IMG/VR virus record: IMGVR_UViG_3300045971_000409
Location: 1-64,000 of that record
DNA: 64,000 bases
Strand: one strand, 5' to 3'
DNA from: a virus
Under the pieces are notes generated by a model. It was not told the DNA's origin and made no database searches. It saw only the letters and a list, made by a program, of their open reading frames with translations. The position numbers were made by a program, and so were the translations under genes. Positions within the stretch are counted from its first letter, which is position 1. Each line of letters starts with the position of its first letter. This document shows, one piece after another, positions 1,133 through 61,018 of this stretch.

Positions 1133-1952
1133 CTGCGCCAAAGACTTGAAAGCCAAACTGACCAAGGCGTCGGGCACTGCCAAGACGTTCTACGTCTACG
1201 ATCAGGATGCGCTTATAGCTCGAACCGAAGGCATGATCCCACCCTACGCGGGAGTAACCTACATGGGCTTATCACCCAGTAGCAACTCGCCCTACGTGTT
1301 CTTGCTTCGGTTCGGAATAATGCTGACCACCGGGGATGAGGACGCCGCGTATTCGGATGCGGGTCGGGGCATGACGGAAGAGCATACTCGCCTGCTGGAT
1401 AGCATCCGCGGGGGAGTGCTTAACACCGCGGCCCCCACCGGCAAACCGTGGCGCTTCGTGAGTGAGAACCCTATCGAGTCCGACAAACTGGGCATCAACT
1501 TCCTCCAGGTCTGGGAATCCGACACGTATCTTACCCCTGGGACGCCCCAGTTTGCCTCTGGGGCCTCTTTGGATGGCATACCCTTACCAGTGCTTACCAT
1601 ACACAACGAGTTCGGCTGGTGCGGGATTATCGGTAGTGCTTCCAAACTTATTGGGCAGGGTCATGCGTATGCCGGAGAGAGCAGGACTCTGGATTGGCCG
1701 GTAGACTTGGTGGGATCGGATAGTCCCGAGACCTACGCCACCAGATACACGCTTCGTACCCTGCGGGACAAAGCTAAAGTGCTGCATGCACAGTACGTAT
1801 TGACATACGGAGCCCGCCGGTTTACTATCCGTTTCCGACACGAGGAGTCGCCCGTAATCAGTGCTGACCCCGTTTTGCAATTAATTGCACCGACAGACAC
1901 AGACCTCTACCAAAATGTGGCTATACGCCTCATGGTTCTCGAAGAGCTGTAA
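1116..1952 (+). CDS. Putative tail terminator with an extra C-terminal domain
   Basis: Directly before the tail tube gene; the N-terminal ~140 aa has terminator-like size and pattern; a second domain follows 'TPGTPQFASG'. Confidence 0.45.
   Translation: MDLVNSCAKDLKAKLTKASGTAKTFYVYDQDALIARTEGMIPPYAGVTYMGLSPSSNSPYVFLLRFGIMLTTGDEDAAYSDAGRGMTEEHTRLLDSIRGGVLNTAAPTGKPWRFVSENPIESDKLGINFLQVWESDTYLTPGTPQFASGASLDGIPLPVLTIHNEFGWCGIIGSASKLIGQGHAYAGESRTLDWPVDLVGSDSPETYATRYTLRTLRDKAKVLHAQYVLTYGARRFTIRFRHEESPVISADPVLQLIAPTDTDLYQNVAIRLMVLEEL
1876..1890 (+). repeat. Dispersed motif TGCAATYAAYTGCAC, copy 1 (intragenic)
   Basis: TGCAATTAATTGCAC. Confidence 0.9.
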
Positions 1953-1979
1953 TAACCTCACACCAAAAAGGAGAAGCGT

Positions 1980-3257
1980 ATGCCACAAGCACAAGGATCA
2001 TTTTCTCAAATCATTATGCAGATGGAGTCCGCGTTCAATGGAACGGCCCCCTCCACCACCGCCACCCAGGATGCGAAAAAAATCTATTTTTCCTCTGAGG
2101 GTTTAGCCCTCAATCAGGATTTAGTAGACTCCCTCCTCATCCGAGGTAATCGTCATGCTTCCGCCCCCATGAGGGGTAAGCTGGATATTGCGGGCAATAT
2201 CACCACGGAACTCATGGCCCAAACCCCACTGTACTACGCTGCTTTTGGGTCTATGGATACCGTACAGACGGGGGGCTCTATGGGAACGGCCCTCACTACC
2301 CCGGTCTTCACTACAGTGGATGCCATAAACCAGACCATCCTCATCACTGCCACGGCCCACGGCCTGGTATGCGGGGACAGCGTGGAAATTACCACCATAA
2401 CCTCCCCTGTTTCAATGAACGGCAAAGTATACCCCGTGGTGTCCGTACCAACGGCAAACACGTTTGTAATCCGTATCCCCATGGGTCTGGCCGCTCAGAC
2501 TTTCACGTTTACAGGTGGGGCTATTAAAAAAGTAACCACCCCCGGCACTATCTTCACCCACACCCTCAAGGCGGGAGGAGCTTTACCCTCCTACTTGATC
2601 GAGAAGGGGTTCCTCGACATAAGCCAGTACTTCCTGTACAAGGGGTGTAAGCTGGATAAATTCGGCTTCACGTTGGGTGCTGATGGACTCATTACCGTTA
2701 CTACTGACTGGATGGGAGCTTCTGAGGCCGTAGCCGTCACCTCCTACGAAATACCCGCCAATGTCCTGGACCTGGGCAAGAGCGGCTTTGATGGCCTTTC
2801 CGCGGGGGCACCAGGCTTCATAAAAGAAAATAACGTCGCCATCGCCACCGTAACCGAGATAAGCTCCTTCTTGCTGGAAAATCAGTTGGATGGGGATACC
2901 TTCATTGTCGGTGGGGGCGGGGTCCGATCTGCGGTCAACCCCGGCATCTACAAGGTATCGGGAACACTCAAAGCTCTATTCATGGACATGGCTCTATACA
3001 CCAAGGCCAAGAACCTCACGCCATCCAGTCTTGATTTCAAATTGTCCCGTAGTGCCACGGGTGATGGTACAGTAGGTAACGAAACCATCCAGTTCTTCAC
3101 CCCGGAACTTGTCTTCAAGCCCAAGTCTCCCGCCATCACCGGACCCAAGGGCGTTTTTGTTGAATTGGGTTTTGTGGGATACTACAACACCAACTCGGAT
3201 GTTACCGGACTTAAAATGACTCTGATGAATGCTACTCCTCCGGGTCAGATGGTCTAA
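1980..3257 (+). CDS. Major tail (tube) protein with an inserted beta-domain
   Basis: AAGGAG RBS; tube-like motifs ('LPSYLIEKGF..QYFLYKGCK', 'VSGTLKALF'); followed by chaperone and tape measure genes. Confidence 0.8.
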   Translation: MPQAQGSFSQIIMQMESAFNGTAPSTTATQDAKKIYFSSEGLALNQDLVDSLLIRGNRHASAPMRGKLDIAGNITTELMAQTPLYYAAFGSMDTVQTGGSMGTALTTPVFTTVDAINQTILITATAHGLVCGDSVEITTITSPVSMNGKVYPVVSVPTANTFVIRIPMGLAAQTFTFTGGAIKKVTTPGTIFTHTLKAGGALPSYLIEKGFLDISQYFLYKGCKLDKFGFTLGADGLITVTTDWMGASEAVAVTSYEIPANVLDLGKSGFDGLSAGAPGFIKENNVAIATVTEISSFLLENQLDGDTFIVGGGGVRSAVNPGIYKVSGTLKALFMDMALYTKAKNLTPSSLDFKLSRSATGDGTVGNETIQFFTPELVFKPKSPAITGPKGVFVELGFVGYYNTNSDVTGLKMTLMNATPPGQMV

Positions 3258-3301
3258 TTTTGCTTCAAGAGGGGCTGTAACCCAGCCCCTCCACAAAAAT
3301 T

Positions 3302-3316
3302 TGCAATTAATTGCAC
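3302..3316 (+). repeat. Dispersed motif, copy 2 (intergenic)
   Basis: TGCAATTAATTGCAC. Confidence 0.9.
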
Positions 3317-3328
3317 ACGGGGTAAATC

Positions 3329-3823
3329 ATGGAAAACACTGTAGAAAAAAGTTACAACATCGGGGGACGCACGTATCTACAACGCGAACTGGTCTACGGG
3401 CAAATCAAGCAGGTAAAAGCGTTTCTATCCAACCTGAATCTTGATTTTGATAACCCGGAGCAGCTCATAAACTCCGTAATTGAGCAGGGACTCATACCTC
3501 AAGCCTGCGCCATCGTCCTAACCCAAAAAGATGCCGAAATCAAAAGCAAGAACCTGAGTGATGAGGCCGAGTTTTTCGAGTATAACCTGCCCCTCAGCAC
3601 GGGGGTGGCCGCCCTGCAAGATTTTTTCGAGGTTACCCCCGTAGTCTCGCTGTACAACATGGTGAGTCAGATTCTGCTCGGGGTAAGCTCGACCATATCC
3701 ACGATGACGGGCGTAACTGGGTTGACGAACTCGTCGCCCTCTTATGTGGCGGAGACATTACCAAACGAGACGCAATCCTCTGGGGATACACCCCCCGAGA
3801 GTCCGAGCCCTTCATCCGTGTAA
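3329..3823 (+). CDS. Tail assembly chaperone (gpG-like)
   Basis: Between tail tube and tape measure; contains the slippery site GAT TTT TTC (DFF). Confidence 0.75.
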   Translation: MENTVEKSYNIGGRTYLQRELVYGQIKQVKAFLSNLNLDFDNPEQLINSVIEQGLIPQACAIVLTQKDAEIKSKNLSDEAEFFEYNLPLSTGVAALQDFFEVTPVVSLYNMVSQILLGVSSTISTMTGVTGLTNSSPSYVAETLPNETQSSGDTPPESPSPSSV

Positions 3824-8276: not shown

Positions 8277-9256
8277 TAGCCCTCAGCGGACCCGCAAGTA
8301 ATTTATCATCTTTGGTCGTAAACAAGCTCCTGACCAACTATGCCCCGATCACCGTATCAGGCTCTGTGGGGGCTACTTACGTTTCCGTATCCGCGGGTAG
8401 TTTGCCGGTAGGCTTGAATGTCCAACTGGCCAGTAGCACCGTAATAAATTTCTACGGAACCCCCTCTGCGATAGGAACCTACCCCTTCACGTTAAAGGTG
8501 CAGGACAACAATGGACCCGTGTACTTGTCCTATACCTTTACCGTGGCCAGTAGCATGCTGGCCGCAGACTCCCAGCACCTGGCCCTGGACACCCTGCTGG
8601 AGCTGTATGAGCTGGATACCTCCCCTATTGATGGCGGAAGCATCCACTACTATTTCTACGCTGGGGTTGTAAATAGTCAAGCCGTAGTATGGCAGGGCAA
8701 CACCTACACGCCCTGGCCTATACTGGTGACTGGATTCGAGGTTGATGGTCGAGGTAAAGCTCCCAGGCCCCGGCTACAGGTCTCCAATAGGGACAGGATG
8801 GTCACTACCCTTAACCTGTCTCTCCAGGACCTTATAGGGGCCAAAATCATTCGTCGTCGCACCTATTACCGCTATCTGGATGCAGTCAATTTTACCGGCA
8901 ATGTCAACCCCACTGCTGACGCCACGGCCCACTACCCAGATGATTTGTACTTTGTGGAGCAGAAGATAAAAGAGGACAAAAATAGCGTAGAGTATGAGTT
9001 GGCGGGGGTGTACGATCTAACCAATCTGCTGCTCCCCCTCCGTAAAATAAACTCGGACTACTGCTCTTGGACTTACAAGGGAGTGGAGTGCGGCTACATT
9101 CGCCCCGTGTATTTCACGGCTTATGATGCCCCCACTACCGATGTAAACGCTGACGCCTGTGGTAAGCGTCTGAGCAGTTGCCGTCTACGCTTTAGTATTG
9201 CTGGTGAGTCCCTGCCGTTTGGTGGATTCCCAGGGGCCGGAAAATACGCTATATGA
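8273..9256 (+). CDS. Minor tail protein, lambda gpL-like, with an N-terminal Ig-like domain
   Basis: 'VVWQGNTYTPWP', 'RRRTYYRYLDAVNF', Cys cluster 'CSWTYKGVECGY..CGKRLSSC', 'LPFGGFPG'. Confidence 0.92.
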   Translation: MIALSGPASNLSSLVVNKLLTNYAPITVSGSVGATYVSVSAGSLPVGLNVQLASSTVINFYGTPSAIGTYPFTLKVQDNNGPVYLSYTFTVASSMLAADSQHLALDTLLELYELDTSPIDGGSIHYYFYAGVVNSQAVVWQGNTYTPWPILVTGFEVDGRGKAPRPRLQVSNRDRMVTTLNLSLQDLIGAKIIRRRTYYRYLDAVNFTGNVNPTADATAHYPDDLYFVEQKIKEDKNSVEYELAGVYDLTNLLLPLRKINSDYCSWTYKGVECGYIRPVYFTAYDAPTTDVNADACGKRLSSCRLRFSIAGESLPFGGFPGAGKYAI

Positions 9257-9969
9257 TCTTTGAATCCGTGTACCTGGACATAAAAGCCCACGCCCAAACC
9301 CAGGTACCCCATGAGGCGTGTGGATTTATAGTCTTGAATAATGATGGGGATTTGGAAGTAGTAACCTCCCCCAACATCAATCTCGACCCCCGTAATAGAT
9401 TCACCACCAGTCCCGAGTCTTACCTGCGAGCAAAGAAATTGGGTAGTATTGTGGGATTGTATCATTCCCACCCCCAAGATTCATCAGAGCCCACGGCGGC
9501 CGACAGAATAATGCACAAAATAGCCAAGGTTCCGGGGGTGATATATTCCGTAGGTCAAGATACCTTTACCGAGGTGTCAACGGATACCCAAGATTACCCC
9601 CTCATGGGTAGAGAATTTGTCTGGGGTATTTTTGATTGCGGAACTCTGATACGAGACTATTACCGGGATAAAGTGGGTATAACATTGGAGGCTGAACACC
9701 CCACAGAGCATGAATGGATAACAGGAGCCAGGACATATTTGCCCTACCTTTACGCCAACAATTTTACGATAGTACCCCCTATCAGCATGAAATTGCACGA
9801 TATTATTCTTGTGCAATTAACTGCACAGCATCCTAACCACGCGGGCATCTACATAGGAGCCAACACAATCTTCCATCACCTGCACCAGCGTCTTTCGACT
9901 GAGGATATTTACGGTGATTATTGGCGAGACAGAACCACCCATGTACTACGCCACAAGGAGTTACTATGA
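9253..9969 (+). CDS. Tail assembly protein, lambda gpK-like (JAB + NlpC/P60)
   Basis: 'PHEACG', 'YHSHP..PTAAD', 'GIFDCG', 'PNHAGIYIG...HH'. Confidence 0.92.
   Translation: MIFESVYLDIKAHAQTQVPHEACGFIVLNNDGDLEVVTSPNINLDPRNRFTTSPESYLRAKKLGSIVGLYHSHPQDSSEPTAADRIMHKIAKVPGVIYSVGQDTFTEVSTDTQDYPLMGREFVWGIFDCGTLIRDYYRDKVGITLEAEHPTEHEWITGARTYLPYLYANNFTIVPPISMKLHDIILVQLTAQHPNHAGIYIGANTIFHHLHQRLSTEDIYGDYWRDRTTHVLRHKELL
9812..9826 (+). repeat. Dispersed motif, copy 3 (in the gpK-like gene)
   Basis: TGCAATTAACTGCAC. Confidence 0.9.
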
Positions 9970-20176: not shown

Positions 20177-20713
20177 ATGGGGTACATCGCAGTATATAAC
20201 ACTTATGATGGAAAGATAGTACGCAATATCCAGGAATATACCCGAGGTATTGAGTTAGAGGCGGGAGAAGGGGAAGCCTTATATATGGGAGATGCTCTTG
20301 GGTACTCCCATATTATCGGTGGGATTCCTGTATTAATCCCAGAAATAATCCCATTGCCTCAGCTTAAAGGGTCTAAAATAAGTATGATAACTTCGGCCTT
20401 CGAGTACTCTCTCGTCAGTAGGCAAACCAGTTACACCACTACGGGCTTAACGCCCAATATAACTGTAAATGCTGCCTCCCGCGATTTAGATAATGCCAAA
20501 GAATTACGGGACAAGATGATAGAGGAGACCATTGCAAATCTCCCCTTTAAGTGCTTCGATAATACCTATGTGCTACTCACCTTAGCGGATGTAAAACAGC
20601 TCATCACTGAGATGCGTAATTACGGTTTTTGGCTCTACCAGCATAAATGGGAATTATTGGCGGCAGTAGAAGCCGCAACCACCGCCGAAGAATTAGAGGC
20701 AATCGTGTGGTAG
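20177..20713 (+). CDS. Tail-fibre-associated protein (DUF4376-like)
   Basis: C-terminal 'KWELLAAVEAATTAEELEAIVW' is typical of tail fibre assembly proteins; follows gpJ. Confidence 0.6.
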   Translation: MGYIAVYNTYDGKIVRNIQEYTRGIELEAGEGEALYMGDALGYSHIIGGIPVLIPEIIPLPQLKGSKISMITSAFEYSLVSRQTSYTTTGLTPNITVNAASRDLDNAKELRDKMIEETIANLPFKCFDNTYVLLTLADVKQLITEMRNYGFWLYQHKWELLAAVEAATTAEELEAIVW

Positions 20714-20723
20714 TAATTGTTTG

Positions 20724-20738
20724 TGCAATCAATTGCAC
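20724..20738 (+). repeat. Dispersed motif, copy 4 (intergenic)
   Basis: gtttgTGCAATCAATTGCACaaac. Confidence 0.9.
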
Positions 20739-20830
20739 AAACTTATTTACAAACCACCAGGACTGGGGTATATACAGGGCATCACCTCAAAATTATACGG
20801 TCCACCCGCCCTCGTAAAAGGAGTTATTGT

Positions 20831-29417: not shown

Positions 29418-29432
29418 TGCAATTAATTGCAC
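29418..29432 (+). repeat. Dispersed motif, copy 5 (intergenic)
   Basis: tgTGCAATTAATTGCACa. Confidence 0.9.
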
Positions 29433-29487
29433 AGAAGTACTTGCCTCAGCAAAGACCTCATGGCATAATAACGGCACAGTAGCTATT

Positions 29488-29521
29488 ACCCTCCGCCCTG
29501 GTACGGCGGGGGGTCTTTTTT
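29488..29521 (+). terminator. Rho-independent terminator ending the late operon
   Basis: ACCCTCCGCC-ctggtac-GGCGGGGGGT followed by C and T6. Confidence 0.85.
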
Positions 29522-29531: not shown

Positions 29532-29560
29532 TTGACAAAACCATATACATATAATATACT
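29532..29560 (+). promoter_or_regulatory. Sigma70-like promoter
   Basis: TTGACA-17-TATACT. Confidence 0.85.
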
Positions 29561-30879: not shown

Positions 30880-30908
30880 TTGACAAAACTTTCTACTTAT
30901 TATATACT
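30880..30908 (+). promoter_or_regulatory. Sigma70-like promoter
   Basis: TTGACA-17-TATACT. Confidence 0.85.
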
Positions 30909-32210: not shown

Positions 32211-32280
32211 TCACCGACCCATTGTGATTTTACCCCCCCCCTGGCCCATGTCAGGGGGGCATTTCCGTAAGGAGATTTTT

Positions 32281-32535
32281 ATGGCTCACGATATACACCA
32301 CCAGATAACTGCAATGACCGGGCTCACAGTTTACGAAAAATTAGTACTCTGGTCCCTGGCGGACCACTACAACAAGAAGACAAAAAAATGCTGTCCCTCG
32401 TGGGAAACAATCATAGCTGAAACAAGTACGAGTAGTTCATCAGTACACAGAGCTATGGTATCGTTAAAGAAAAAAGGATTGATAGAATCCCTACGGAGTA
32501 AAAATGCAGCACAGTATAACCTTCTCTTTATCTGA
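32281..32535 (+). CDS. Small winged-HTH protein (paralogue of the initiator N-terminus)
   Basis: TAAGGAG RBS; 'EKLVLWSLADHYN....CCPSWETI..ETSTSSSSVHRAM..L..KGLI'. Confidence 0.8.
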   Translation: MAHDIHHQITAMTGLTVYEKLVLWSLADHYNKKTKKCCPSWETIIAETSTSSSSVHRAMVSLKKKGLIESLRSKNAAQYNLLFI

Positions 32536-32564: not shown

Positions 32565-33599
32565 ATGGCTTTTGACCACCACAAGCAGATACAAAAACTG
32601 GTAGAACTCAGCAGTAAGGAAAGCCTAGTTTTGAGAGTACTGGCCGACCACGCTAACCATCACACAAAAAAATGCTGCCCCACATGGGAAACCATAACCA
32701 GAGAAAGTGGATTAAGTAGGGCCTCGGTGCATAGGGCTTTGGTTCTTTTGCGAGATAAAGGATACGTGACCCCCACCAAATCAGACCGCAAAGTCCAATA
32801 CAATCTGGAACTGACAAACCCAAAACCACCCCAAGTAGCCATCGAATTGAAAGTAGCAGCAGTAGAGCAACGTCTCATCGGGGGAGTTTCCAAGGGCGCA
32901 GTCACGTCTCAGCTTGAGACCTGTCGCGTCTCACCGGGGGAGTTACCTATACTTAACCTAAAAGATAATAAAAAAGAAATTCTTGGCAAACAAGTTTGCA
33001 GTTCGCAAGCTCACAAAAAATCAGAGGAGAAAATTATGAAATTTCCAGAAGGTACTTCATCCTCTGATGTATTAGGGCTAGTAGAAAAATTGAAAAACCA
33101 GAAGAAAAAGAAAACCAGTCAAGTGGGAGAAATACACACCCCCCTGAATTTTTCTCTGGCCAAGGCAGATTTACTTTGGCGGAATCATATTCCGAAAATC
33201 TATCCGCAGATAACCATGGTCTGCCTGACGGTGAAACAAAAGGGGCAACTCAAGTATCTGTTGACTCTGTTCACTCAAGGGCATTTGGAGGAGGACTATG
33301 CCCTCACCACGATAATCGAAAAATGGGTGGAGTTTTGTATCTACCTCAAGGGGCACTTCAACGTGTTCTATTCTCCCGCCCTACCTGACATGGGATTCCT
33401 GTTGAAGAATGGGGCCAATGCTGTCAACTTCATAATTCAGTACCAAAATGCCACCGTAGCTCCAGTGCAATTAATTGCACAAAAACCATTCAAGGTTACT
33501 ATGAAGGAAATCATACCCATAACATTGCCACCCGCAGAAGATTCTGTTACTCTGGAAGATATCTTTAAGTGGGAGAAACTGCAAAGTAAGGCGGGCTAG
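32565..33599 (+). CDS. Putative replication initiator (N-terminal wHTH)
   Basis: 'LVLRVLADHAN....CCPTWETI.RESGLSRASVHRAL..L.DKGYV'; followed by DnaC-like and DnaB genes. Confidence 0.75.
   Translation: MAFDHHKQIQKLVELSSKESLVLRVLADHANHHTKKCCPTWETITRESGLSRASVHRALVLLRDKGYVTPTKSDRKVQYNLELTNPKPPQVAIELKVAAVEQRLIGGVSKGAVTSQLETCRVSPGELPILNLKDNKKEILGKQVCSSQAHKKSEEKIMKFPEGTSSSDVLGLVEKLKNQKKKKTSQVGEIHTPLNFSLAKADLLWRNHIPKIYPQITMVCLTVKQKGQLKYLLTLFTQGHLEEDYALTTIIEKWVEFCIYLKGHFNVFYSPALPDMGFLLKNGANAVNFIIQYQNATVAPVQLIAQKPFKVTMKEIIPITLPPAEDSVTLEDIFKWEKLQSKAG
32871..32983. repeat. Iteron-like repeats plus an A-rich tract (putative origin)
   Basis: CGTCTCAYCGGGGGAGTT at 32871 and 32927; CGTCTCAGCTTGAGAC at 32905; AT-rich run follows. 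Confidence 0.55.
33466..33480 (+). repeat. Dispersed motif, copy 6 (in the initiator gene)
   Basis: gTGCAATTAATTGCAC. Confidence 0.9.
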
Positions 33600-35494: not shown

Positions 35495-35523
35495 TTGACA
35501 AAACTTTCAACCTATTATATACT
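35495..35523 (+). promoter_or_regulatory. Sigma70-like promoter
   Basis: TTGACA-17-TATACT. Confidence 0.85.
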
Positions 35524-36352: not shown

Positions 36353-36511
36353 ATGTCCCTCATCGTTTTGCTCTTCGCGTTTCTTATGCTGTTTCTTTTG
36401 TACCATGTAAATAGGTCCCGCGTGAACATGCCAGATGCGTGTGCCGCCCGTGGCGGGATAGTTGTGCAGACCAACCACGGATATATGTGCCTGGACGTAA
36501 AACCCAAATAA
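36353..36511 (+). CDS. Small membrane-anchored protein
   Basis: N-terminal TM segment; 'C..RGG..V......C'. Confidence 0.5.
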   Translation: MSLIVLLFAFLMLFLLYHVNRSRVNMPDACAARGGIVVQTNHGYMCLDVKPK

Positions 36512-36518: not shown

Positions 36519-36533
36519 TGCAATTAATTGCAC
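36519..36533 (+). repeat. Dispersed motif, copy 7 (intergenic)
   Basis: TGCAATTAATTGCAC. Confidence 0.9.
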
Positions 36534-36553
36534 AAGAACTACACGGAGGTACC

Positions 36554-38131: not shown

Positions 38132-38160
38132 TTGACAAAACTTTCAGGCTATATTATACT
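38132..38160 (+). promoter_or_regulatory. Sigma70-like promoter
   Basis: TTGACA-17-TATACT. Confidence 0.85.
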
Positions 38161-39085: not shown

Positions 39086-39307
39086 ATGCTCAACGATACT
39101 TGCGTGCTTTACAAGGTAGGAGATACCCCCTACGTGGGACCGGATGCAGACTCAGGACCGGGCTACCCTATTGGAACTCAGGTGCGGATTATAGAAGTGT
39201 ATCCCGAGGATAACCACTATCAGGTAGAGCCGGTTGACCCCGAGCTTCACCGACTGTACCGACACTGGTACTATGCAGATTATGAACTGCGTACGGAGAT
39301 ACCATGA
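39086..39307 (+). CDS. Hypothetical protein (SH3-like?)
   Basis: GGAGGT RBS; 'YKVGD...GTQVRIIEV...YQVE'. Confidence 0.6.
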   Translation: MLNDTCVLYKVGDTPYVGPDADSGPGYPIGTQVRIIEVYPEDNHYQVEPVDPELHRLYRHWYYADYELRTEIP

Positions 39308-39564
39308 TAGAGATTGATCTAAGCAGCGTAGATAAGCCCATCATCAAGGTAGAAGGGGTTGAAGTACAAGATATATGTACTTCTCTCAATCTATCCGTAG
39401 ACGCAAAGACTTTAATGCCTACTGTAAAATTGCAATTAATTGCACCGACCATGAGCCCTATTCATGTAGACCGGTATCAAATTATTTTTGATTTGTCGGG
39501 TACCAGTTTGCAGGTAGCAAAAGCACTTAATACCGCCGTTCGAGAGAGGCTAGGACTTAGTTGA
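39304..39564 (+). CDS. Hypothetical protein
   Basis: ATGA coupling; GGAG RBS. Confidence 0.55.
   Translation: MIEIDLSSVDKPIIKVEGVEVQDICTSLNLSVDAKTLMPTVKLQLIAPTMSPIHVDRYQIIFDLSGTSLQVAKALNTAVRERLGLS
39431..39445 (+). repeat. Dispersed motif, copy 8 (intragenic)
   Basis: TGCAATTAATTGCAC. Confidence 0.9.
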
Positions 39565-39565
39565 T

Positions 39566-40078
39566 ATGAATTACTGGGTAACAGCAGACACGCATCTGGG
39601 GCACATGGCCATGATTGAAAAATGTGGCCGTCCCGACGACTTCTCCCGCAGGATTGTAAATAATACCGCGGCTATAGTACAAGAGGGGGACGTGCTCATA
39701 CATCTTGGAGACTTCTGCCTGTATGCGGACGAGTTCTGGAATGAGCAATTCTCCTCCAAGGTACTAGGCAAGCACTGGCTAGTCAGGGGGAATCATGACC
39801 GCAAGACCTCTTCGTGGTATCTCTCTCGGGGGTGGGATTGCGTAGTAGAACGCTTGGATATGTCCCTTTTTGGGGTGGATATAGCCTTCACCCACCGGCC
39901 AGTGTGGCCCCACATGCTTGAGGCGGGCCAACTGAATATCCACGGGCATCACCACAACACTCGGCACCACCCCGAAGATGAAGTTACCTTCCAGCATCGC
40001 TGCATTAATGTTGAGGACAACAACTACGGGCCGATAAATTTACGCAGGGTGATAGAAACCTGGGGGAAGAAATGCTAG
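39566..40078 (+). CDS. Calcineurin-like metallophosphoesterase
   Basis: DTHLGH, HLGDF, RGNHD, FTH, HGHHH. Confidence 0.9.
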   Translation: MNYWVTADTHLGHMAMIEKCGRPDDFSRRIVNNTAAIVQEGDVLIHLGDFCLYADEFWNEQFSSKVLGKHWLVRGNHDRKTSSWYLSRGWDCVVERLDMSLFGVDIAFTHRPVWPHMLEAGQLNIHGHHHNTRHHPEDEVTFQHRCINVEDNNYGPINLRRVIETWGKKC

Positions 40079-42339
40079 GGCAACCACTCATGACCGCTGC
40101 GGCGGCAATCTACCCTTACAAGACGGGCATGGAGAAGAAGTACACCCATGTGTCCCGCTACGGTGACCCCTTCGTCACTTACAAGTTGTCGGGGTACGGG
40201 GGCAACGCCTCCATCCACCTGCCACGGGCCATTTGTCCTATCGGCAAACTGGATAAGCGAGTAGTGGGGATACCGGTGTCCTTCCCCAAGGCCAACTTCA
40301 TTCCCCGTAATGAGGACCAGTCTGAGGCCGTAGATTACTGCTCCCAACTGCTACAAGGGGACGAGTCACACATCCTGGAAGCCCCCACGGGATGTCTTGT
40401 GGGTAGTACCGAGATAATTGTAAACAGGGCGGGGAAATCCGTAAGGACTACTCTGGAAGAAGCCTACCGCCACACGCACCCACCAACACCTGTACCTGAG
40501 GGCTATTGTTTTTGTGGGTGCGGAGGAAAGACAACAGTACCCGAGAGAACTAGAAGTCCAAAACGTCCCAAGGGAGTACCCTCTAAGTTTTTATTCAAGC
40601 ATGAGGGTAGAGTTCGTCAATGGAAAAACAGCATGCAGGTACGGTCTTTTTTAGGTACCCATATAGGGCTAAACAAGGCTAATGCGGTAGTACAATCGGG
40701 GGTGAAAGAGGTATACCGCCTTACTCTAGGGGATTGTAATTTTTTGGTGGGAACTAAAGACCACCCCATAATGACTACAGAAGGTTTCGTGCCTCTGGGG
40801 GACCTAACCCCTGACCACATGGTTATGTGTGATCGAGTACGCCCCACAAAGCAGGTAACTAAGGCCCCCAAAGTACGAGACAAGTATATCAATAACATGT
40901 GGAAGCACCCGTTTGCTGTACGCATAAGGACCACAAAAGAGGCCCGAGGGTACACCCGCAGAGTAGCCCTGCACGTAGCGATATTTGAGGCCAGGACCAA
41001 TAAATTGTCACTGGATGATTACATCACCGTATGCAGACTAGGTAAGACGTCCAATCTTGATTTGGTAGACCCTTCGATTTACGTGATACACCATAAGGAT
41101 GGTAACCACAGCAACAATAGTATTGATAATTTGCAAAAGATGTTGAGGGAAGACCACTACAGCCACCATGCTTCACCGCAGAATTTTGGAAATATGGTAC
41201 CTTATTACGTTCCTGTGGAGTCAGTTGTGTATGTGGGTGAGGAAATGACCTACGACATACAGTGCGAGGCCCCTCACCACAATTTTGTAGCCAATGGTAT
41301 TGTAGTACACAATTCCGGCAAGACTTTCATGGGTATGGCCATTGCCGCCAACATGGGGCTCTGTACCCTAGTCGTGGTACCCAAGACTGACCTCGTGGAC
41401 CAGTGGATAGTGGCAGCCAAAGGAGTGCTAGGACTCACCGATTCAGAGATAGGCATTGTCAAAGGGGACAAGTGTTCCTATGAGGGCAAGAAGCTGGTCA
41501 TTGGGTTGGTACACTCTCTGTGCAAAGAGGGTCGTTATCCAGACGCGCTCTACCGTCAATTCGGCCTCATCATCTTCGATGAAGTACACGTTATGGGAGC
41601 AGAAACCTTCTCCGAATTGGTCTGGCTATTCCCTGCCAAGTACCGACTGGGACTGTCGGCTACCCCCTACCGTAAAGATGGACGAGAGAGGCTGTTTACG
41701 GACCACATCGGGCAAGTCCTAGTGCGTATCGAGGGTAATGAATTACCCTTCCGTATTTTCCGCAAAGAGACCGGCTGGAAAGTACCCCGAGTCAAAAAGA
41801 AAAATCCCCAGACGGGAGCCTACGATATCATTCAACTGCCCCACAGTGCTGGAAAGCTCATGCACATTTTCAAGCTCATGGCAGGCAACGAGAAACGTAA
41901 TTCGATCATTGGGGACTTCGTGGCCAAGGCTTATACCGCAGGGAGAAACATTCTGGTAGTATCGGACCTCAAGGAAGATCACCTGGACCGACTCTACGCC
42001 CTCTTCGCCAAGCTCGGAGTGGCTCGTAAGGACATGGGCTACTACGTGGGCACCATGTCTAAGAAAGACTTGGAGATTTCCAAAGCCAAGCAGGTAATAC
42101 TGGCTACGTACGGGATGATTAACTTCGGGACCAATATCCCGTGGCTAGATACTCTAGTAATGGCTACCCCCAGGTCGGACGTAGTACAAATCGTGGGACG
42201 TATTCTGCGGGAATATCCTGACAAATCGGTACCCATAGTCTTCGACCCGGTAGATAGTGATAGTTCAGTAATGGCCAGTTATGCGGCCACTAGAAGAAAA
42301 TGGTACCTCAGCAAAGAAACCACGATAGAAGAGCATTGA
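40072..42339 (+). CDS. SF2 DEAD/DEAH-like helicase containing an intein
   Basis: Split Walker A APTG|SGKT, 'IIFDEVH', 'GLSATP', 'QIVGRILR'. Confidence 0.92.
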   Translation: MLGQPLMTAAAAIYPYKTGMEKKYTHVSRYGDPFVTYKLSGYGGNASIHLPRAICPIGKLDKRVVGIPVSFPKANFIPRNEDQSEAVDYCSQLLQGDESHILEAPTGCLVGSTEIIVNRAGKSVRTTLEEAYRHTHPPTPVPEGYCFCGCGGKTTVPERTRSPKRPKGVPSKFLFKHEGRVRQWKNSMQVRSFLGTHIGLNKANAVVQSGVKEVYRLTLGDCNFLVGTKDHPIMTTEGFVPLGDLTPDHMVMCDRVRPTKQVTKAPKVRDKYINNMWKHPFAVRIRTTKEARGYTRRVALHVAIFEARTNKLSLDDYITVCRLGKTSNLDLVDPSIYVIHHKDGNHSNNSIDNLQKMLREDHYSHHASPQNFGNMVPYYVPVESVVYVGEEMTYDIQCEAPHHNFVANGIVVHNSGKTFMGMAIAANMGLCTLVVVPKTDLVDQWIVAAKGVLGLTDSEIGIVKGDKCSYEGKKLVIGLVHSLCKEGRYPDALYRQFGLIIFDEVHVMGAETFSELVWLFPAKYRLGLSATPYRKDGRERLFTDHIGQVLVRIEGNELPFRIFRKETGWKVPRVKKKNPQTGAYDIIQLPHSAGKLMHIFKLMAGNEKRNSIIGDFVAKAYTAGRNILVVSDLKEDHLDRLYALFAKLGVARKDMGYYVGTMSKKDLEISKAKQVILATYGMINFGTNIPWLDTLVMATPRSDVVQIVGRILREYPDKSVPIVFDPVDSDSSVMASYAATRRKWYLSKETTIEEH
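40393..41313 (+). mobile_element. Intein (307 aa) with an HNH homing endonuclease
   Basis: Begins CLVGST; block B 'GTKDHP'; ends 'TYDIQC..HHNFVANGIVVHN' with +1 Ser; HNH 'IHHKDGNHSNNSIDNL'. Confidence 0.93.
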
Positions 42340-42364
42340 CAAAACTGTCAACACTAGGTACACT
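42336..42364 (+). promoter_or_regulatory. Sigma70-like promoter with an inverted repeat over the -35
   Basis: TTGACA-17-TACACT; TTGACA-aaac-TGTCAA. Confidence 0.75.
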
Positions 42365-42392
42365 CCGGGTATCTATTTTCAAGGAGGACAAT

Positions 42393-42839
42393 ATGCAAGA
42401 TAGAAACGCCTCATGGAGTGCCTGGTATAAGAAAAATTCGCAAAAGTATAACGCCCAGCGTAAAGCTCGATACCACACGGACCCTGAGTACCGGGAGAAG
42501 ATTCAAACCATAGCCCGAGAAAGTAAACGAGTACGGACGGCCAAACTAGAAGGCTCAGTCTTTCGAGTATGGGATGGTAAGCGTATCCTTGTCCACCGTA
42601 TAGGGGCTATTGCCGTGGCGGCCGGAGTAAATGTAGACTTCATTCGTCGCTTGGAGGAGAATGGTACCATCCCCAAACCTTCGTTCTCTGGCACCCAACG
42701 AGTGTACACGCAGTCTCAGGCTGATCTGATTCGCACGCTGGCTTACAAGTTGAAAACCACTTCGTCTCGCAAACTGTTTGCGAGCATTTGCTCCCAAGAG
42801 AGCATCAAAATCAAGGCCCAATGGCTTAAAGAAATTTGA
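42393..42839 (+). CDS. MerR-like HTH DNA-binding protein
   Basis: 'RIGAIAVAAGVNVDFIRRLEENGTIPKP....QRVYT'. Confidence 0.75.
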   Translation: MQDRNASWSAWYKKNSQKYNAQRKARYHTDPEYREKIQTIARESKRVRTAKLEGSVFRVWDGKRILVHRIGAIAVAAGVNVDFIRRLEENGTIPKPSFSGTQRVYTQSQADLIRTLAYKLKTTSSRKLFASICSQESIKIKAQWLKEI

Positions 42840-42864
42840 GCCCAACCCAGAGGAGGACATTGTT

Positions 42865-43224
42865 ATGGCAATCGTAAAAGGCGCAGCAAAACCGGTAGCG
42901 GCCCCACCCGTAGCGAACATCGAAACGGCCCAGGCCAAGGTAAACACCACCGTTGTGGAGAAATCCGGGGCCGTGGAAACCAGTGTCACGGAAGCAAATG
43001 AGCCCGTGGGGGACGTAATTGTCTCTGCGGAACCCATGGCCAATGTCGGCATCGGTCTGTCTGTAACCCGTAATCTCGGGGACTACAACTCCATCAAGAT
43101 GTCGGTGGATATCCACATCCCCTGCGCGGCCACCGAAGAGGGCATCCAGGAAGCCTACGAAGTCGGCAAGGCTTTCGTGGAAGACAAACTGAATGGTCTC
43201 ATTGTCGAGAACTGCGGCGAGTAG
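42865..43224 (+). CDS. Hypothetical protein
   Basis: GAGGAGG RBS; 'TRNLGDYNSIKMSV'. Confidence 0.7.
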   Translation: MAIVKGAAKPVAAPPVANIETAQAKVNTTVVEKSGAVETSVTEANEPVGDVIVSAEPMANVGIGLSVTRNLGDYNSIKMSVDIHIPCAATEEGIQEAYEVGKAFVEDKLNGLIVENCGE

Positions 43225-43393: not shown

Positions 43394-43408
43394 TGCAATT
43401 AATTGCAC
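43394..43408 (+). repeat. Dispersed motif, copy 9 (upstream of recA)
   Basis: TGCAATTAATTGCAC. Confidence 0.9.
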
Positions 43409-43424: not shown

Positions 43425-44504
43425 ATGGCAGTTCTCGCAGTAGAGCAACCCAAGAAGGCCAAGGAATTCAAAGCAGATGAACTTATCAAGTCCTTCACCA
43501 AGAACATGGGGAAGGGCATCGTTTCTCTCGGCGGGCATCTGGTAGATATTGAGCGTCTACCCACCGGAGTATTCCCTTTCGATCTGGCTTCGGGTGGGGG
43601 CTTCCCTCTCGGCAAAATAGCCATTGTTTACGGACCCGAATCCAGCGGTAAGACCAACCTTCTACTCAGGGCTATGGCCATGTTCCAGTTCATCGCCCCC
43701 CACCTATCTATCGTATTCGTTGACCTGGAGCATGCCTGGGACCCGGTGTGGGCTGTTCTCATGGGGGTAGATGCCTCCAAGATTATTGTCATTCGCCCCG
43801 AGTATGCAGAACAAGCTGTGGATATCGTGGAAGGATTCATGCAGGCCGTGGATATTGGTCTGGTGGTTGTGGATTCTATCTCCGCATTCATCACGGAAAA
43901 TGAATCAGCCTCGTCGGCGGAAAAAGCCATAGTCGGGGGTTCTGCGGGGGTAGTTGGTAAGCTCCTGCGGAAAACAGTTGCCGTACAGAGTCGCATGGCT
44001 ATACTGGAACGATACCCCACCCTTCTCTGCACCAGTCAGACCCGCATGAAAATTGGGGTACTTCATGGTGACCCGGAAACCATGACTGGTGGACAGGCCC
44101 CCAAGTTCTACTCCTCCATGACTACTCGCTTGTATGGTAAGAACATCGTGGAAAAAGCTATCAACCCGAATCTCCCTGCCTACAAAGAGACCAGCATCAT
44201 CATCAAGAAATGGAAAGTACCTATCGTGGCTACGGCTGCATCGTACCAGATGAACATGATACCATGCCCCTCCGGTCCTGTCGGCTTTGTGGATGATTGG
44301 GCCACAGTCCAAACCTACGCCAAGAACTATGGTATCTTCGCCAAGGCAGATAAAGGGCCAGGATGGAAAGTAGGCACCACCCTATTCCCCACACTGGATG
44401 CTATACGCTCCCAAATGGACCTGGACCCTCACTATCGCAATGCCATTCGAGAAGAGATTTGCTCATTGGCACTGCAAGACCACACAGTAGCCCCCCAATC
44501 CTGA
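43425..44504 (+). CDS. recA: RecA-like recombinase
   Basis: 'GPESSGKT', 'FVDLEHAWDP', 'VVVDSI', 'GDPETMTGGQAPKFYSS'. Confidence 0.92.
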   Translation: MAVLAVEQPKKAKEFKADELIKSFTKNMGKGIVSLGGHLVDIERLPTGVFPFDLASGGGFPLGKIAIVYGPESSGKTNLLLRAMAMFQFIAPHLSIVFVDLEHAWDPVWAVLMGVDASKIIVIRPEYAEQAVDIVEGFMQAVDIGLVVVDSISAFITENESASSAEKAIVGGSAGVVGKLLRKTVAVQSRMAILERYPTLLCTSQTRMKIGVLHGDPETMTGGQAPKFYSSMTTRLYGKNIVEKAINPNLPAYKETSIIIKKWKVPIVATAASYQMNMIPCPSGPVGFVDDWATVQTYAKNYGIFAKADKGPGWKVGTTLFPTLDAIRSQMDLDPHYRNAIREEICSLALQDHTVAPQS

Positions 44505-45789: not shown

Positions 45790-45818
45790 TTGACAAAACT
45801 AGCAATATAACATATACT
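45790..45818 (+). promoter_or_regulatory. Sigma70-like promoter
   Basis: TTGACA-17-TATACT. Confidence 0.85.
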
Positions 45819-46945: not shown

Positions 46946-47281
46946 GTGCCCCGGTATATGCTGCGCGTTACCGGGTTGCCCTCCTGGACTTACCCCCCAC
47001 GGAGGGCCTTTTTTATGGTAGAACAAGAAGGAATACTGGCCAAAGTATACACCCGATCTTACAGCAATAAACTTTGCAAGGTAAAAAGCACCCACTGGTT
47101 TTATACCAATGATCTAAAAGAAGTTCATATCCAAATGGGCCGGGCAGGGTATGACATATCCCGGTACGAAGTAGAACCTTTCTACTATACAGCTACCCCC
47201 GAGCGAAAGTTCCTGCCGGTAGATCGCGTGCAATCAATTGCACACGTTTTACACGAAGGGGGAGTACCTATCTATGGATAA
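46946..47281 (+). CDS. Hypothetical protein
   Basis: ORF track. Confidence 0.5.
   Translation: MPRYMLRVTGLPSWTYPPRRAFFMVEQEGILAKVYTRSYSNKLCKVKSTHWFYTNDLKEVHIQMGRAGYDISRYEVEPFYYTATPERKFLPVDRVQSIAHVLHEGGVPIYG
47229..47243 (+). repeat. Dispersed motif, copy 10 (intragenic)
   Basis: gTGCAATCAATTGCAC. Confidence 0.9.
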
Positions 47282-52659: not shown

Positions 52660-52679
52660 CCCCTTACATGGAGGTAACA

Positions 52680-53513
52680 ATGGGAAAGCCCACAGTAAAA
52701 TGTAATCTAAAATTGGAGTTCAAGGTGCAAGACGAAGACCGGGATGATGTGATAGTAACTCCCTTATCGGCCACGGGAGCACCCCTTGAGTCGTATGTAA
52801 CTACCGGTAAAATGGCCCCTGCCAGTCAGCGATCTAACGTAGTGCCCTTCACCCCCAAAGGGGCATCGACTAAATCGACACAGCCAAAGTGCCACCATTC
52901 GCATCCGGGGTTACCCATCCTTTGTTCTGATGGGATAACTCGTTTGGTGTATGGGGGCTCGTGCCTTGACCCTGTAATCAAAGACATGGATATATTCATT
53001 GGCTTAGATGGCGGGATGCAACACACAAAGAGACGTTATCCGTGGGAACCGGGCCTGGAGTATCTCTTCCCTATCCCTGACATGGGCGTACCTCCCGACC
53101 TGAGCTTGTTCAAGTCCCTGATTCAATATCTGTCTGAGCAGATTATGCTGGACAAAAAGATATTTATTGGGTGTATCGGTGGGCATGGCCGAACAGGATT
53201 AGTTCTATCGGTTCTTGTGCAATCAATTGCACAGGAAGCTGATGCGGTAACTTATGTGCGGGAGCATTATTGTAAAAAGGTAGTCGAGTCCTCCGTGCAA
53301 GTTGAGTGGCTAAACAAGAACTTTGGGATAACCAAAGTATCAGCGTCTAAGACAGGCCACACCGCAGCATCCCTATCCGCAACCGTCGGCTATAAGTCCT
53401 CGCTAGAGAGCTACAGTTCGTCGGCCTATCTGCCCAGCAACAATTCACCCAAGAAAGAAGTCCATCCCGTGTCTAGCAAGGGGTGTATATGGACGGGTAA
53501 TACACTGAAATAA
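52680..53513 (+). CDS. Cys-based (PTP/dual-specificity) phosphatase
   Basis: 'IPDMGVP', CX5R 'FIGCIGGHGRTG', 'VVESSVQ'; GGAGGT RBS before ATG 52680. Confidence 0.88.
   Translation: MGKPTVKCNLKLEFKVQDEDRDDVIVTPLSATGAPLESYVTTGKMAPASQRSNVVPFTPKGASTKSTQPKCHHSHPGLPILCSDGITRLVYGGSCLDPVIKDMDIFIGLDGGMQHTKRRYPWEPGLEYLFPIPDMGVPPDLSLFKSLIQYLSEQIMLDKKIFIGCIGGHGRTGLVLSVLVQSIAQEADAVTYVREHYCKKVVESSVQVEWLNKNFGITKVSASKTGHTAASLSATVGYKSSLESYSSSAYLPSNNSPKKEVHPVSSKGCIWTGNTLK
53218..53232 (+). repeat. Dispersed motif, copy 11 (in a phosphatase gene)
   Basis: tgTGCAATCAATTGCACa. Confidence 0.9.
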
Positions 53514-54610: not shown

Positions 54611-54613
54611 ACC

Positions 54614-59223: not shown

Positions 59224-59274
59224 GTTCCACAGTCGGCATGACGTTTTACGTCACCGAGGCAGGAGTATGATTGA

Positions 59275-59820: not shown

Positions 59821-59826
59821 TTTAAT

Positions 59827-59855
59827 TTGCGATTTAATCCAGTACCCTATATACT
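59827..59855 (+). promoter_or_regulatory. Sigma70-like promoter (TTGC class)
   Basis: TTGCGA-17-TATACT. Confidence 0.7.
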
Positions 59856-59901
59856 ATAACCATATCAACCACCACAACAGCACAATACAAGGAGGTACAC
59901 C

Positions 59902-60033
59902 ATGGATGCGTCACAAGGAATGAAAAGATGGTATGATTTTCTAAAAAGCCGCAGTAAAACCACAAAGACCTTCACCCTCAACGATATTATGATTTGGGAA
60001 AAGGAGGTACACAATGACAGCACTACCGATTGA
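59902..60033 (+). CDS. Small early protein (43 aa), absent from the ORF track
   Basis: AAGGAGGT RBS behind a promoter; MDASQGMKRWYDFLKSRSKTT... Confidence 0.6.
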   Translation: MDASQGMKRWYDFLKSRSKTTKTFTLNDIMIWEKEVHNDSTTD

Positions 60034-60337
60034 CAGGTGGAAAAAATGGGAAGCCGCATCTAATGTAAAAGAGATACTCACTGAGCGCGGAATAGAACCC
60101 AACCCCAACTATGTAGAGACAATATACCCCCACCAAAGACAAAAACAGAGGCAGGAATTCAAGAGAAAGAATGAAAAACTTGTACCTTTCGACCAACTTG
60201 ATTTTCCCAGTCAGTGCATGTCCGTATTCCTTATATTTGGTAATATATTGTGGGCAATTATCACAGGGGTGGCGCTAGTCCTTTCTGTTGTTGTCCTATT
60301 ATTTATGGGGGGCGGCGGCGGGGGAAGGCATGAGTGA
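60014..60337 (+). CDS. Hypothetical membrane protein
   Basis: AAGGAGGT RBS; C-terminal hydrophobic segment. Confidence 0.65.
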   Translation: MTALPIDRWKKWEAASNVKEILTERGIEPNPNYVETIYPHQRQKQRQEFKRKNEKLVPFDQLDFPSQCMSVFLIFGNILWAIITGVALVLSVVVLLFMGGGGGGRHE

Positions 60338-60989
60338 ACAACCGGATTGCGTAATAGGAAGGCACAACACTGATCTAACCGGGCTCCGATGGCCCAAGCG
60401 TATCATTGGTCGATCTCGTCTGCATAAGTGCTACACTCTCCGGGGCATGACCCATTGGATTTTCGCCTGGGATGAGAAGGACGCTATTGCCCTGATGGTT
60501 CACTTTAAATTGGTGACAGACCCCAAGTATGTGACCAAAGTTCGCAACTACTGGGACAGTAACACCAAGATGCCTGAACTCTACGACTCCACCAAACTCA
60601 TCGCTAAACTCGGGGTGCGGGGCATGGGGGAGCCTATAGCCACGCCTGATGGGGAATCCTTTTGGCGACTTACGGATTTTGTGGATGGCAGGGAACATGA
60701 CATGCTGCCCAACCTACTCGAAGAGGGGGCATTTAGTTACCTGTACCAGCCCAAGTCTGAACAGCCCAAAGTACCCAAAGAAATCCCCACTGGAGTTGAA
60801 GAACTGGCCAAGAAGTTCATGACGTACCTACAGCGGGAAAAGCCAAAGCTAATGGTAGAAGAAATGGAAGAGCTGTGGAAGGTGTACCAGGAGGGGGCTT
60901 ATGGCGGCTTGAGTATGCCTCCGGTACCACGGGACCGCTTCAAAAGACACTACCGCAAATATCTGAGCGAGAAAAAGAAACAAGATTAA
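60330..60989 (+). CDS. Hypothetical protein
   Basis: Overlapping start; ORF track. Confidence 0.65.
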   Translation: MSEQPDCVIGRHNTDLTGLRWPKRIIGRSRLHKCYTLRGMTHWIFAWDEKDAIALMVHFKLVTDPKYVTKVRNYWDSNTKMPELYDSTKLIAKLGVRGMGEPIATPDGESFWRLTDFVDGREHDMLPNLLEEGAFSYLYQPKSEQPKVPKEIPTGVEELAKKFMTYLQREKPKLMVEEMEELWKVYQEGAYGGLSMPPVPRDRFKRHYRKYLSEKKKQD

Positions 60990-61003
60990 GCACTTACGTT
61001 TTG

Positions 61004-61018
61004 TGCAATTAACTGCAC
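61004..61018 (+). repeat. Dispersed motif, copy 12 (intergenic)
   Basis: ttgTGCAATTAACTGCACaa. Confidence 0.9.

Follow-up and report, generated by a model that had tools for sequence, protein, structure and literature searches.

What purpose is served by a short palindrome that recurs along a viral genome, between genes as well as within them? This question is raised by the window analysed here, a stretch of 64 kb that forms the first part of a 77,348-bp IMG/VR virus record (IMGVR_UViG_3300045971_000409, hereafter the G000 contig; CheckV completeness 62%). The original prediction, made from the letters of the window, had listed twelve near-palindromic cores and had regarded them as a genome-wide protein-binding mark rather than a single classical operator. 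Every one of the twelve core starts matches TGCAATYAAYTGCAC on the + strand, and chance can be discounted as their origin, as had been argued, the pattern being found in none of 100 dinucleotide-preserving shuffles of the window. Allowing three mismatches in the window added weak, chance-level matches only. Four further copies lie beyond the window, at 65757, 70800, 75533 and 77121, so that the whole record holds 16. The palindrome is a real, strongly non-random regulatory DNA element of a whole phage family. The reading that we favour, at roughly even chances, is that its copies serve as operators, dispersed along the genome, at which a symmetric dimer encoded by the phage punctuates or represses transcription; the most likely binder is the replication-initiator-type protein of the phage, a short paralogue of it, or both.

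The core of the element is TGCAATTAATTGCA, which alignment of the 16 copies extends to t-(G/T)-TGCAATTAATTGCA-C-a, at full extent an 18-bp palindrome. The flanking bases are T at -2 in 12 copies, G at -1 in 11, C at +14 in all 16 and A at +15 in 13. In the window the core variants are those tallied previously, seven TTAATT, three TCAATT and two TTAACT, every change being T-to-C on the + strand. The copies at 29418 and 33466 are perfect 16-mers and hence match on the - strand as well.

The G000 phage is a siphovirus from pond DNA: two pond-metagenome DNA runs contain the stretch, with no RNA run among the matches listed. It has no near-identical match among GenBank phages and is itself new. Its DNA polymerase is 41-45% identical to those of the Vibrio phages KarBoss, PG28 and SIO-2, the Stenotrophomonas phages DLP5 and DLP3, the Rhodobacter phage RcZahn and the Rhizobium phage RHph_TM16 (TM16). 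Conservation of the palindrome was followed through ten genomes, namely the G000 contig, four long IMG/VR contigs (G001, G002, G003 and G005) and five isolated phages (SIO-2, KarBoss, DLP5, RcZahn and TM16). All G000 genes lie on the + strand, and transcription is unidirectional in all ten genomes. The replication and portal proteins of the four contigs are 23-50% identical to those of the window, and their GC content is 57-61%, as compared with 50.7% for G000 and 45-61% for the nine relatives together.

In an exact-match scan of IMG/VR, the 15-mer turned up on numerous viral contigs, often in several copies each, and G001, G002, G003 and G005 carry 17-28 exact pattern matches each, both strands counted. 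On the forward strand of the isolated phages, with at most two mismatches, 25 matches were found in RcZahn, 34 in DLP5, 22 in SIO-2, 28 in KarBoss and 8 in TM16, against 0-1 for the same pattern read backwards. When the ten genomes were scored on the 12 outer positions of TGCAATnnATTGCA, each contained 16-49 sites at one mismatch or fewer and 19-55 at two or fewer, against 0-4 in shuffles. The half-sites TGCAA and TTGCA are near-invariant across the set; TM16 deviates only in the four central bases, and DLP5 favours a TCAA centre. Both the number of sites and their sequence are thus kept in relatives whose proteins are 23-50% identical, which supports the view of the palindrome as a genome-wide protein-binding mark. 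The searchable literature does not mention the motif, a full-text motif search having returned unrelated primers only, and no such repeat is mentioned in the RcZahn and DLP3 papers.

The element also extends to a second phage lineage. The IMG/VR scan yielded 56 multi-site loci, most of them belonging to the G000 family. Six others (L045, L060, L065, L100, L102 and L122; GC 55-67%) are HK97-like and essentially without family proteins, and they carry 2-4 copies of the palindrome per stretch of at most 15 kb. Besides generic tail-protein matches, they share only three protein families with the G000 family: an initiator-like winged helix-turn-helix (wHTH) protein (hhalign probability 81%, E 1e-5), a Cro-like helix-turn-helix (HTH) protein, and a tandem-HTH protein that resembles the product of G000 67359-67979 and has no match in the other family genomes. 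The palindrome of L045 follows the wHTH gene at a distance of about 240 nt, past an AT-rich stretch; that of L065 occupies the 5' part of the open reading frame (ORF) next after the wHTH gene, in the same reading frame as elsewhere. That the palindrome occurs in a second lineage suggests that a regulator and its sites pass as a set from one phage to another. Four more IMG/VR loci (L072, L078, L085 and L097; GC 36-37%), each with two palindromes about 2.55 kb apart, may represent a third motif-bearing group.

Whether such a site is read as DNA or as a folded nucleic acid can be judged from its variation. Palindromes on the transcribed strand of every operon might work as RNA or single-stranded DNA hairpins, be it as terminators, processing sites, mRNA stabilisers or translational operators, and two copies do fold strongly. 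At 20724 and 29418 the flanks lengthen the stem to 10-12 pairs, and the RNA folds reach -14.5 and -12.6 kcal/mol, respectively (z about -4.7). The copy at 20724 (20724..20738, a TCAATT variant 11 nt past the stop at 20713) belongs to a palindrome of 24 bp (20719-20742) with a T-rich tail, and it is terminator-like. This tail is found at 20724 only, most sites being without a U-tract. Ordinary copies fold like shuffles (-3.2 and -6.9 kcal/mol, z near 0), and Rfam gave no family match for the palindrome sites. Among the 299 non-consensus stem cells counted over all sites, a single one is compensated, 47 form wobble pairs and 251 are broken; the half-site variant TGAAA / TTTCA occurs on one side only per site, either side being tolerated. 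Pairing of the stem is thus not under selection. This pattern of variation therefore fits a symmetric dimer on duplex DNA and not a hairpin, and the hairpin explanation, already disfavoured, retains only a very slim chance.

The placement of the sites was analysed for 314 sites pooled from the ten genomes. Intergenic positions are enriched 4- to 8-fold, as illustrated by G000 (8 of 16 sites, 2.3 expected) and G001 (30 of 46, 7.5 expected). In most genomes the sites are spaced more regularly than random placement would give, with coefficients of variation (CV) of 0.46-0.72; the CV is 0.50 in G000 (P=0.004), where no two sites are closer than 1426 bp, and 0.46 in DLP5, a value that no simulation reached. 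The polarity attributed to the site by the original prediction is real in statistical terms, since the asymmetric intergenic copies, taken relative to transcription, have their centres in the CA and TG orientations at 28:7; for asymmetric intragenic copies the ratio is 35:22, and in G000 all 11 asymmetries point one way. The site itself is symmetric, as most copies are. Because the flanks complete the 18-bp palindrome, the polarity amounts to a partial bias and not to an asymmetric site. An apparent avoidance of half-sites, seen as depletion against a mononucleotide expectation, disappeared under Markov expectations.

A first class of sites, 45 of the 314, is linked to promoters. In these, a -35 hexamer begins 7-10 nt (mostly 8-9) beyond the 14-mer, with a -10 hexamer 16-18 nt further on, an arrangement found at 2.5% of random positions and on the opposite side of the site in 7 of 314 cases. 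Since the gap to the sigma-70 -35 hexamer is fixed, the centre of the palindrome falls near -51. Relative to predicted starts, site centres peak between -50 and -60, with a small second cluster from -10 to +4, and 18 of the 314 sites overlap a -10 hexamer or a start (control 2.2%). In the window this geometry is exemplified by the copy at 29418..29432, located 7 nt past the stop at 29411 and upstream of the AAA ATPase gene, where the promoter TTGCCT-17-CATAAT (29441-29469) begins 9 nt after the 14-mer. Seven of the ten genomes have a site no more than about 165 nt ahead of the AAA ATPase gene. The weak promoter that follows the 29418 palindrome is separated from a strong promoter at 29532 by a strong terminator-like hairpin at 29488-29514 (10 pairs, 8 of them GC, with a T-run), which might give rise to a very short transcript or shield the late and early regions from each other.

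The strong promoters of the window are near-identical, of the form TTGACA-17-TATACT, and occupy its non-structural half (29532-29560, 30880-30908, 35495-35523, 38132-38160 and 45790-45818), with variants at 1800, 42336, 48058, 51546, 59827 and 61044. Promoters and palindromes alternate, at distances of about 1-1.4 kb, and in no case overlap. The copy at 61004..61018 (TTAACT), which lies 15 nt past the stop at 60989, precedes by 25 nt the -35 hexamer of the promoter TTGCGT-17-TATACT (61044-61072). The original prediction had stated that the copies do not overlap the promoter hexamers. A lack of any relation to promoters holds in the window and is too strong for the family, given the subset positioned 8-9 nt upstream of a -35 hexamer. 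The motif was also considered as a sigma-70 -35 or -10 element in its own right and rejected, its hexamer matches being poor and its spacing inconsistent.

A larger class, 74 of the 314, lies 0-30 nt before a Shine-Dalgarno (SD) sequence and start codon, often directly behind the upstream stop with no room for a promoter. In the window these pre-SD sites are the copies at 3302, 36519, 43394 and 47229. The first (3302..3316) is intergenic and is followed after 13 nt by the ATG at 3329. That at 36519..36533 stands 8 nt past the stop at 36511 and 20 nt before an SD and ATG, upstream of the segment of the operon encoding primase. The copy at 43394..43408, also intergenic, is followed after 17 nt by the RecA-like start at 43425, and SIO-2 and KarBoss likewise have a site just upstream of RecA. 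The fourth (47229..47243, TCAATT) falls within the last 55 nt of the gene 46946..47281, with an SD and ATG 31 nt downstream. As had been noticed before, four copies come shortly after a stop codon, those at 20724, 29418, 36519 and 61004, at distances of 7-15 nt. SD sequences at 36540-36552 and at other gene starts are contained in short inverted repeats of the TAC-ACGGAG-GTA type, several of them just downstream of palindromes.

About 41% of the sites are intragenic, at any position within genes. All six intragenic copies of the window share the reading frame xTG-CAA-TTA-ATT-GCA, the first base of the site being codon position 2, as the original prediction had stated, and the same frame is used by 88 of 130 intragenic copies family-wide. 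The frame TGC-AAT-TAA is excluded by its stop codon, and the preference for the first frame is plausibly explained by amino-acid tolerance. In addition to that at 47229, the intragenic copies of the window are those at 1876..1890, inside the gene 1116..1952 and about 47 nt downstream of the start predicted for the promoter at 1800-1828; 9812..9826 (TTAACT), in the minor-tail gene 9253..9969; 33466..33480, in the O-like initiator gene at a relative position of 0.88; 39431..39445, in the small gene 39304..39564; and 53218..53232 (TCAATT), in the gene 52668..53513. The twelve copies of the window are all on the + strand. The copy within the initiator gene is recurrent, a site being found at 0.88-0.93 of that gene in G000, G001, G002, G003, G005 and DLP5.

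Which protein might read these sites? The original prediction had named a wHTH protein, the adjacent initiator, a MerR-like protein and a host factor. The O-like replication-initiator-type protein (344 aa; 32565..33599, + strand) has an N-terminal wHTH (HTH_36, E 7.5e-11) and matches PHROG 'replication initiation' families. It is the only DNA-binding protein that is syntenic in all ten genomes, in which the gene order AAA ATPase, 225-254-aa protein, initiator, loader and DnaB is kept throughout. G000 and G003 carry a second copy of its wHTH (window 32565-32810 in G000) as a small gene of its own immediately upstream. The G000 duplicate, a 103-aa O-like HTH_36 protein (32224..32535, + strand), shares 52% identity with the N-terminus of the protein encoded next, and the G003 pair (L256 6155-6484 and 6456-6761) is 30% identical. 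AlphaFold renders the 103-aa protein as a winged helix, at a modest confidence (predicted local distance difference test score of 69); its nearest solved folds, weakly so (Foldseek E >= 0.07, template modelling score about 0.5), are MarR-family regulators, whose long dimerisation helices it does not have. A search with the wHTH alignment returned no loci beyond contigs already known. The pair stays the best of the proposed binders, being syntenic in all ten genomes and shared with the second motif-bearing group. As the sequence link between the wHTH of G000 and those of the relatives is weak, the initiator or its short paralogue is rated as the leading candidate and not as the identified binder.

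Other candidates fare less well. The MerR-like or Xis-like HTH protein (42300..42839, + strand; phrog_19880, E 2e-26), a weaker candidate, is present in only four of the ten genomes (G000, KarBoss, SIO-2 and DLP5). Its gene overlaps by about 60 nt, in a different frame, that of an acidic 148-aa protein (42778-43224) conserved in 8-9 relatives, both genes looking real; this protein, p148, was itself considered as a binder and set aside as acidic and disordered-looking. A Cro-like HTH_3 protein has three flanking sites in G001 and occurs only in G001, G002, RcZahn and TM16. The gp66-like family phrog_17202 (G001 copy at 71032-72240, or L247 11032-12240) is conserved in nine genomes, always behind a RuvC-like gene; it carries an HTH-like 'YRKAMYL...GWTKL' block and has one to three palindromes upstream in most of the nine, in tandem where there are several, none being found in SIO-2. 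It was rejected as the binder, as searches by hidden Markov model and hhalign did not find it in the G000 contig, where other genes occupy 59.8-62 kb; an Atlas search with it gave only sub-threshold leads, DUF3102 and ParB-HTH. Pfam, PDB and PHROG comparisons of p148, of the 238-, 233-, 223- and 167-aa ORFs and of the gp66-like protein yielded nothing useful.

We infer from these contexts that the element works through a bound protein, which would act as follows. One two-fold symmetric phage protein, common to this lineage of large siphoviruses with one-directional genes, would bind duplex DNA, each subunit reading one TGCAA half-site. From 16-50 roughly even sites it would act on the host RNA polymerase, mainly as a brake: it might block elongation at the pre-SD sites wedged between stop codon and ribosome-binding site and at the intragenic sites, occlude the start at a few promoters, and contact the polymerase from about -51 at a subset of sigma-70 promoters. 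The outcome would be that a single long direction of transcription is cut into separately controlled units. This reading fits the site contexts, the partial polarity, the even coverage and the plasmid-prophage lifestyle of DLP3 and DLP5, both of which are temperate phagemids (PMC7326821, PMC5834331); in such phages a genome-wide silencer would make sense.

Several observations weigh against dispersed operators of a repressing kind. Most strong sigma-70-like promoters of every genome are without a palindrome; in G000 only 1 of 22 promoters has one at a gap of 6-11 nt, and the promoter-linked geometry is convincing in the window at 29418 only. The identity of the motif across alpha- and gamma-proteobacterial phages is unlike immunity operators, which usually diverge fast, and such deep conservation would suit an essential positive factor equally well. 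A constant location near -51 would be more usual for an activator than for a repressor. With regard to the binder, the G000 wHTH is weakly related to those of the relatives (hhalign probability 29%, E 6e-4), and the usual targets of O-like initiators are tandem iterons at one origin and not 16-50 dispersed sites.

Some of these points lead directly to positive control, in which the palindrome would be the site of a phage activator or of a phage-modified or phage-encoded polymerase, with middle or late units starting at or after it. The fixed 8-9 nt to the -35 hexamers would then be expected, as would conservation across hosts and GC contents of the kind seen in essential transcription signals; asymmetric copies tend to be oriented with transcription, many copies lie directly upstream of genes, and the 18-bp consensus takes the form TGT-N12-ACA, that of P2 Ogr/Delta sites, in 7 of the 16 copies. 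Yet neither the contig nor the annotated relatives showed a recognisable RNA polymerase or sigma gene, and the site-bearing promoters already have good -35 and -10 hexamers. In the pre-SD class, moreover, a start downstream of the site would delete the ribosome-binding site, because the SD begins 1-10 nt after it, and the 41% of sites that lie anywhere within genes are equally awkward for an activator. The RcZahn protein described as 'Ogr/Delta-like' (gp96) scores as an NrdR-type zinc ribbon, and the sole Ogr_Delta match in G000 (E 0.006) is below the cut-off. On balance we consider positive control unlikely. The identical motif in Vibrio, Stenotrophomonas, Rhodobacter and Rhizobium phages could also mean that the reader is a conserved host machine, a nucleoid protein or global regulator exploited by phages. 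The host-factor option of the original prediction is judged unlikely for the very reason that the motif is common to phages of alpha- and gamma-proteobacteria, and we know of no regulator spanning both classes with this site. A scan of species genomes returned, among the matches listed, mostly single, chance-level matches in scattered taxa; that none of those listed came from Vibrio, Stenotrophomonas or Rhodobacter is a weak additional argument, and multi-copy bacterial loci look like prophages. A host reader thus seems very improbable.

Two further explanations tie the palindrome to maintenance or replication of the genome. It could be the loading site of a ParB/KorB-type CTP-dependent sliding clamp, serving partition, long-range silencing or both. 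A palindrome of 14-16 bp has the size of parS or OB sites, and its dispersal in and between genes at even spacing is what such a system would show; KorB class I operators, too, are located just upstream of -35 hexamers. ParB_N domains occur in G001 and G002, relatives of RcZahn gp1 are found in TM16, DLP5 and KarBoss, and the DLP3 and DLP5 phagemids encode two ParB-domain proteins (PMC7326821). A clamp loader, however, predicts neither an orientation bias nor a tight pre-SD placement, and no RcZahn gp1 homologue was detected in SIO-2. A ParB-like gene next to the terminase is commonplace in phages and has no bearing on partition. The parS-like role put forward by the original prediction is weakened because no ParB_N protein (PF02195) was matched in the G000 contig at E <= 0.1, the contig being 62% complete, and a clamp now appears a rather remote prospect. 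Alternatively, an O-like initiator could load a DnaB-type helicase at many evenly spaced and co-oriented secondary origins, or couple replication with transcription. In 6-7 genomes a conserved site falls within the initiator gene or at its 3' end, and the lambda origin likewise lies within the O gene; the initiator-like wHTH is syntenic in all ten genomes and has a homologue in four of the six motif-bearing HK97-like loci, and sites are evenly spaced in unidirectional genomes. Against dispersed replication sites stand the lack of iteron clusters or isolated half-site arrays, the single site at the putative origin where a tandem array would be expected, and the tight ties to -35 hexamers and SD sequences, which point to gene expression; we would give this possibility little weight. 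A bolder and similarly doubtful proposal is that initiator and palindrome travel as a pair, with at least two unrelated lineages carrying it, in which the initiator, with its short paralogue as antagonist, would load the replicative helicase at many of 16-50 evenly spaced, co-oriented sites and gate transcription, so that one code of protein and site would coordinate replication and expression of an 80-100 kb one-way genome.

Dispersed operators of this kind can be set beside known systems, and by the features tested the palindrome set is a member of none of them. The closest functional likeness is to the operator/stoperator system of cluster A mycobacteriophages (PMC9283540), which would make a stoperator-like role the best fit among the options originally listed; no support was found for two others, packaging and self-recognition signals. 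Like the stoperators bound by L5 gp71 and the TipsytheTRex repressor, at least 20 copies of a short site being spread genome-wide in both cases (PMC9283540, PMC6550527; here, 16 in the G000 contig and 16-49 in relatives), many palindromes lie in short gaps by stop or start codons and a few at promoters, and no phage RNA polymerase is involved. The stoperator, in contrast, is a 13-bp asymmetric site bound by a monomer with two DNA-binding domains, whereas a 14- to 18-bp palindrome implies a symmetric dimer. Stoperators are oriented according to the direction of transcription; here there is only a 4:1 bias, among a minority of asymmetric copies. The palindrome has stayed the same over much greater divergence and in more than one host class, and 41% of its copies are intragenic. 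No gp71-like protein was noticed in Pfam and PHROG scans.

Phage P1 offers another comparison, since both P1 and, to judge by the phagemid relatives DLP3 and DLP5, this family would be large phages of the plasmid-prophage type; in P1 one repressor, C1, serves many scattered operons, as is proposed here. The 17 or more C1 operators are asymmetric 17-mers overlapping promoters, whereas about 5% of the palindromes overlap a predicted start and most strong promoters are without a site. KorB acts on 12 OB operators of plasmid RK2 (PMC11790492). These are palindromes of similar length distributed over a replicon of 60-100 kb, some near -35 hexamers, some distant and some within genes, and silencing across the whole replicon is the role that might be proposed for the phage palindromes too. 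The RK2 class I operators lie nearer the promoter, at about -40, as compared with about -51 here; an orientation bias is not expected for KorB, and KorB is a ParB-family CTPase, of which the 62% complete G000 contig gave no match at E <= 0.1.

With lambda O and plasmid Rep proteins (RepE, pi and RepA) the candidate shares an O-like N-terminal winged helix and a site within its own gene, and dimers of O/Rep-type initiators bind inverted repeats and repress transcription. Known initiators, on the other hand, serve one origin with tandem iterons and their own promoter and are not known to act at 16-50 dispersed sites, and no iteron array is present here; clusters of half-sites or full sites were found nowhere in G000, the initiator gene containing one site, at 0.88. 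Operators of the MarR family, such as those of OhrR (TACAATT-AATTGTA) and SlyA (TTAGCAAGCTAA), are likewise AT-centred palindromes of similar length and half-site shape, yet a MarR regulator governs just one promoter or a few nearby, unlike the genome-wide palindromes. The P2 Ogr and P4 Delta systems combine a dyad centred near -55 of activator-dependent promoters with a zinc-finger protein, a combination that G000 does not show, the TGT-N12-ACA form being present in 7 of 16 copies. T7-like promoters, with a phage polymerase and an oriented site of 17-23 bp ending at +1, are not matched either, no polymerase having been recognised and the site being a palindrome that is intragenic in 41% of its copies.

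A circuit of dispersed operators is of a known kind, and the depth of conservation is unusual. The features that stand out are the conservation across two proteobacterial classes, the second phage lineage, the even spacing and the three fixed geometries relative to expression signals. Phages like SIO-2, DLP5, RcZahn and RHph_TM16 are widely isolated, and some have been proposed for therapy; a single 14-bp word at 16-50 places per member provides a direct handle on the master regulator of this lineage. The palindrome might account for the silencing of a 100-kb one-way genome in the plasmid-prophage state, or for the timing of its expression in lytic growth. It also constitutes a simple signature for recognising family members and prophages in metagenomes, and several relatives are in culture, so that the element is directly testable.

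Other genes of G000 concern the virion and replication. The tail genes include minor tail proteins and a 3216-aa tail fibre J-type protein, which had been considered as an N4-like virion RNA polymerase and was rejected as such, and a 1311-aa ORF is probably the tape measure, judged by its position. A portal protein is also encoded. The replication module comprises the AAA ATPase, the two O-like wHTH proteins, DnaB, primase, an intein-bearing helicase, a RecA-like protein and a Cas4-type nuclease, and a DNA polymerase A and a PPDK-like dikinase are found as well. The helicase gene (ResIII/DEAD; 40072-42339) contains its intein at residues of about 201-414, with Intein_splicing and HNH_3 (HNH endonuclease) matches. 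Between 48134 and 54362 the window holds a module consisting of the PPDK-like dikinase, small proteins and two phosphatase-like proteins, the latter being named PTPc tyrosine phosphatases in the RcZahn annotation; this module is kept in nearly all relatives, at 34-50% identity.

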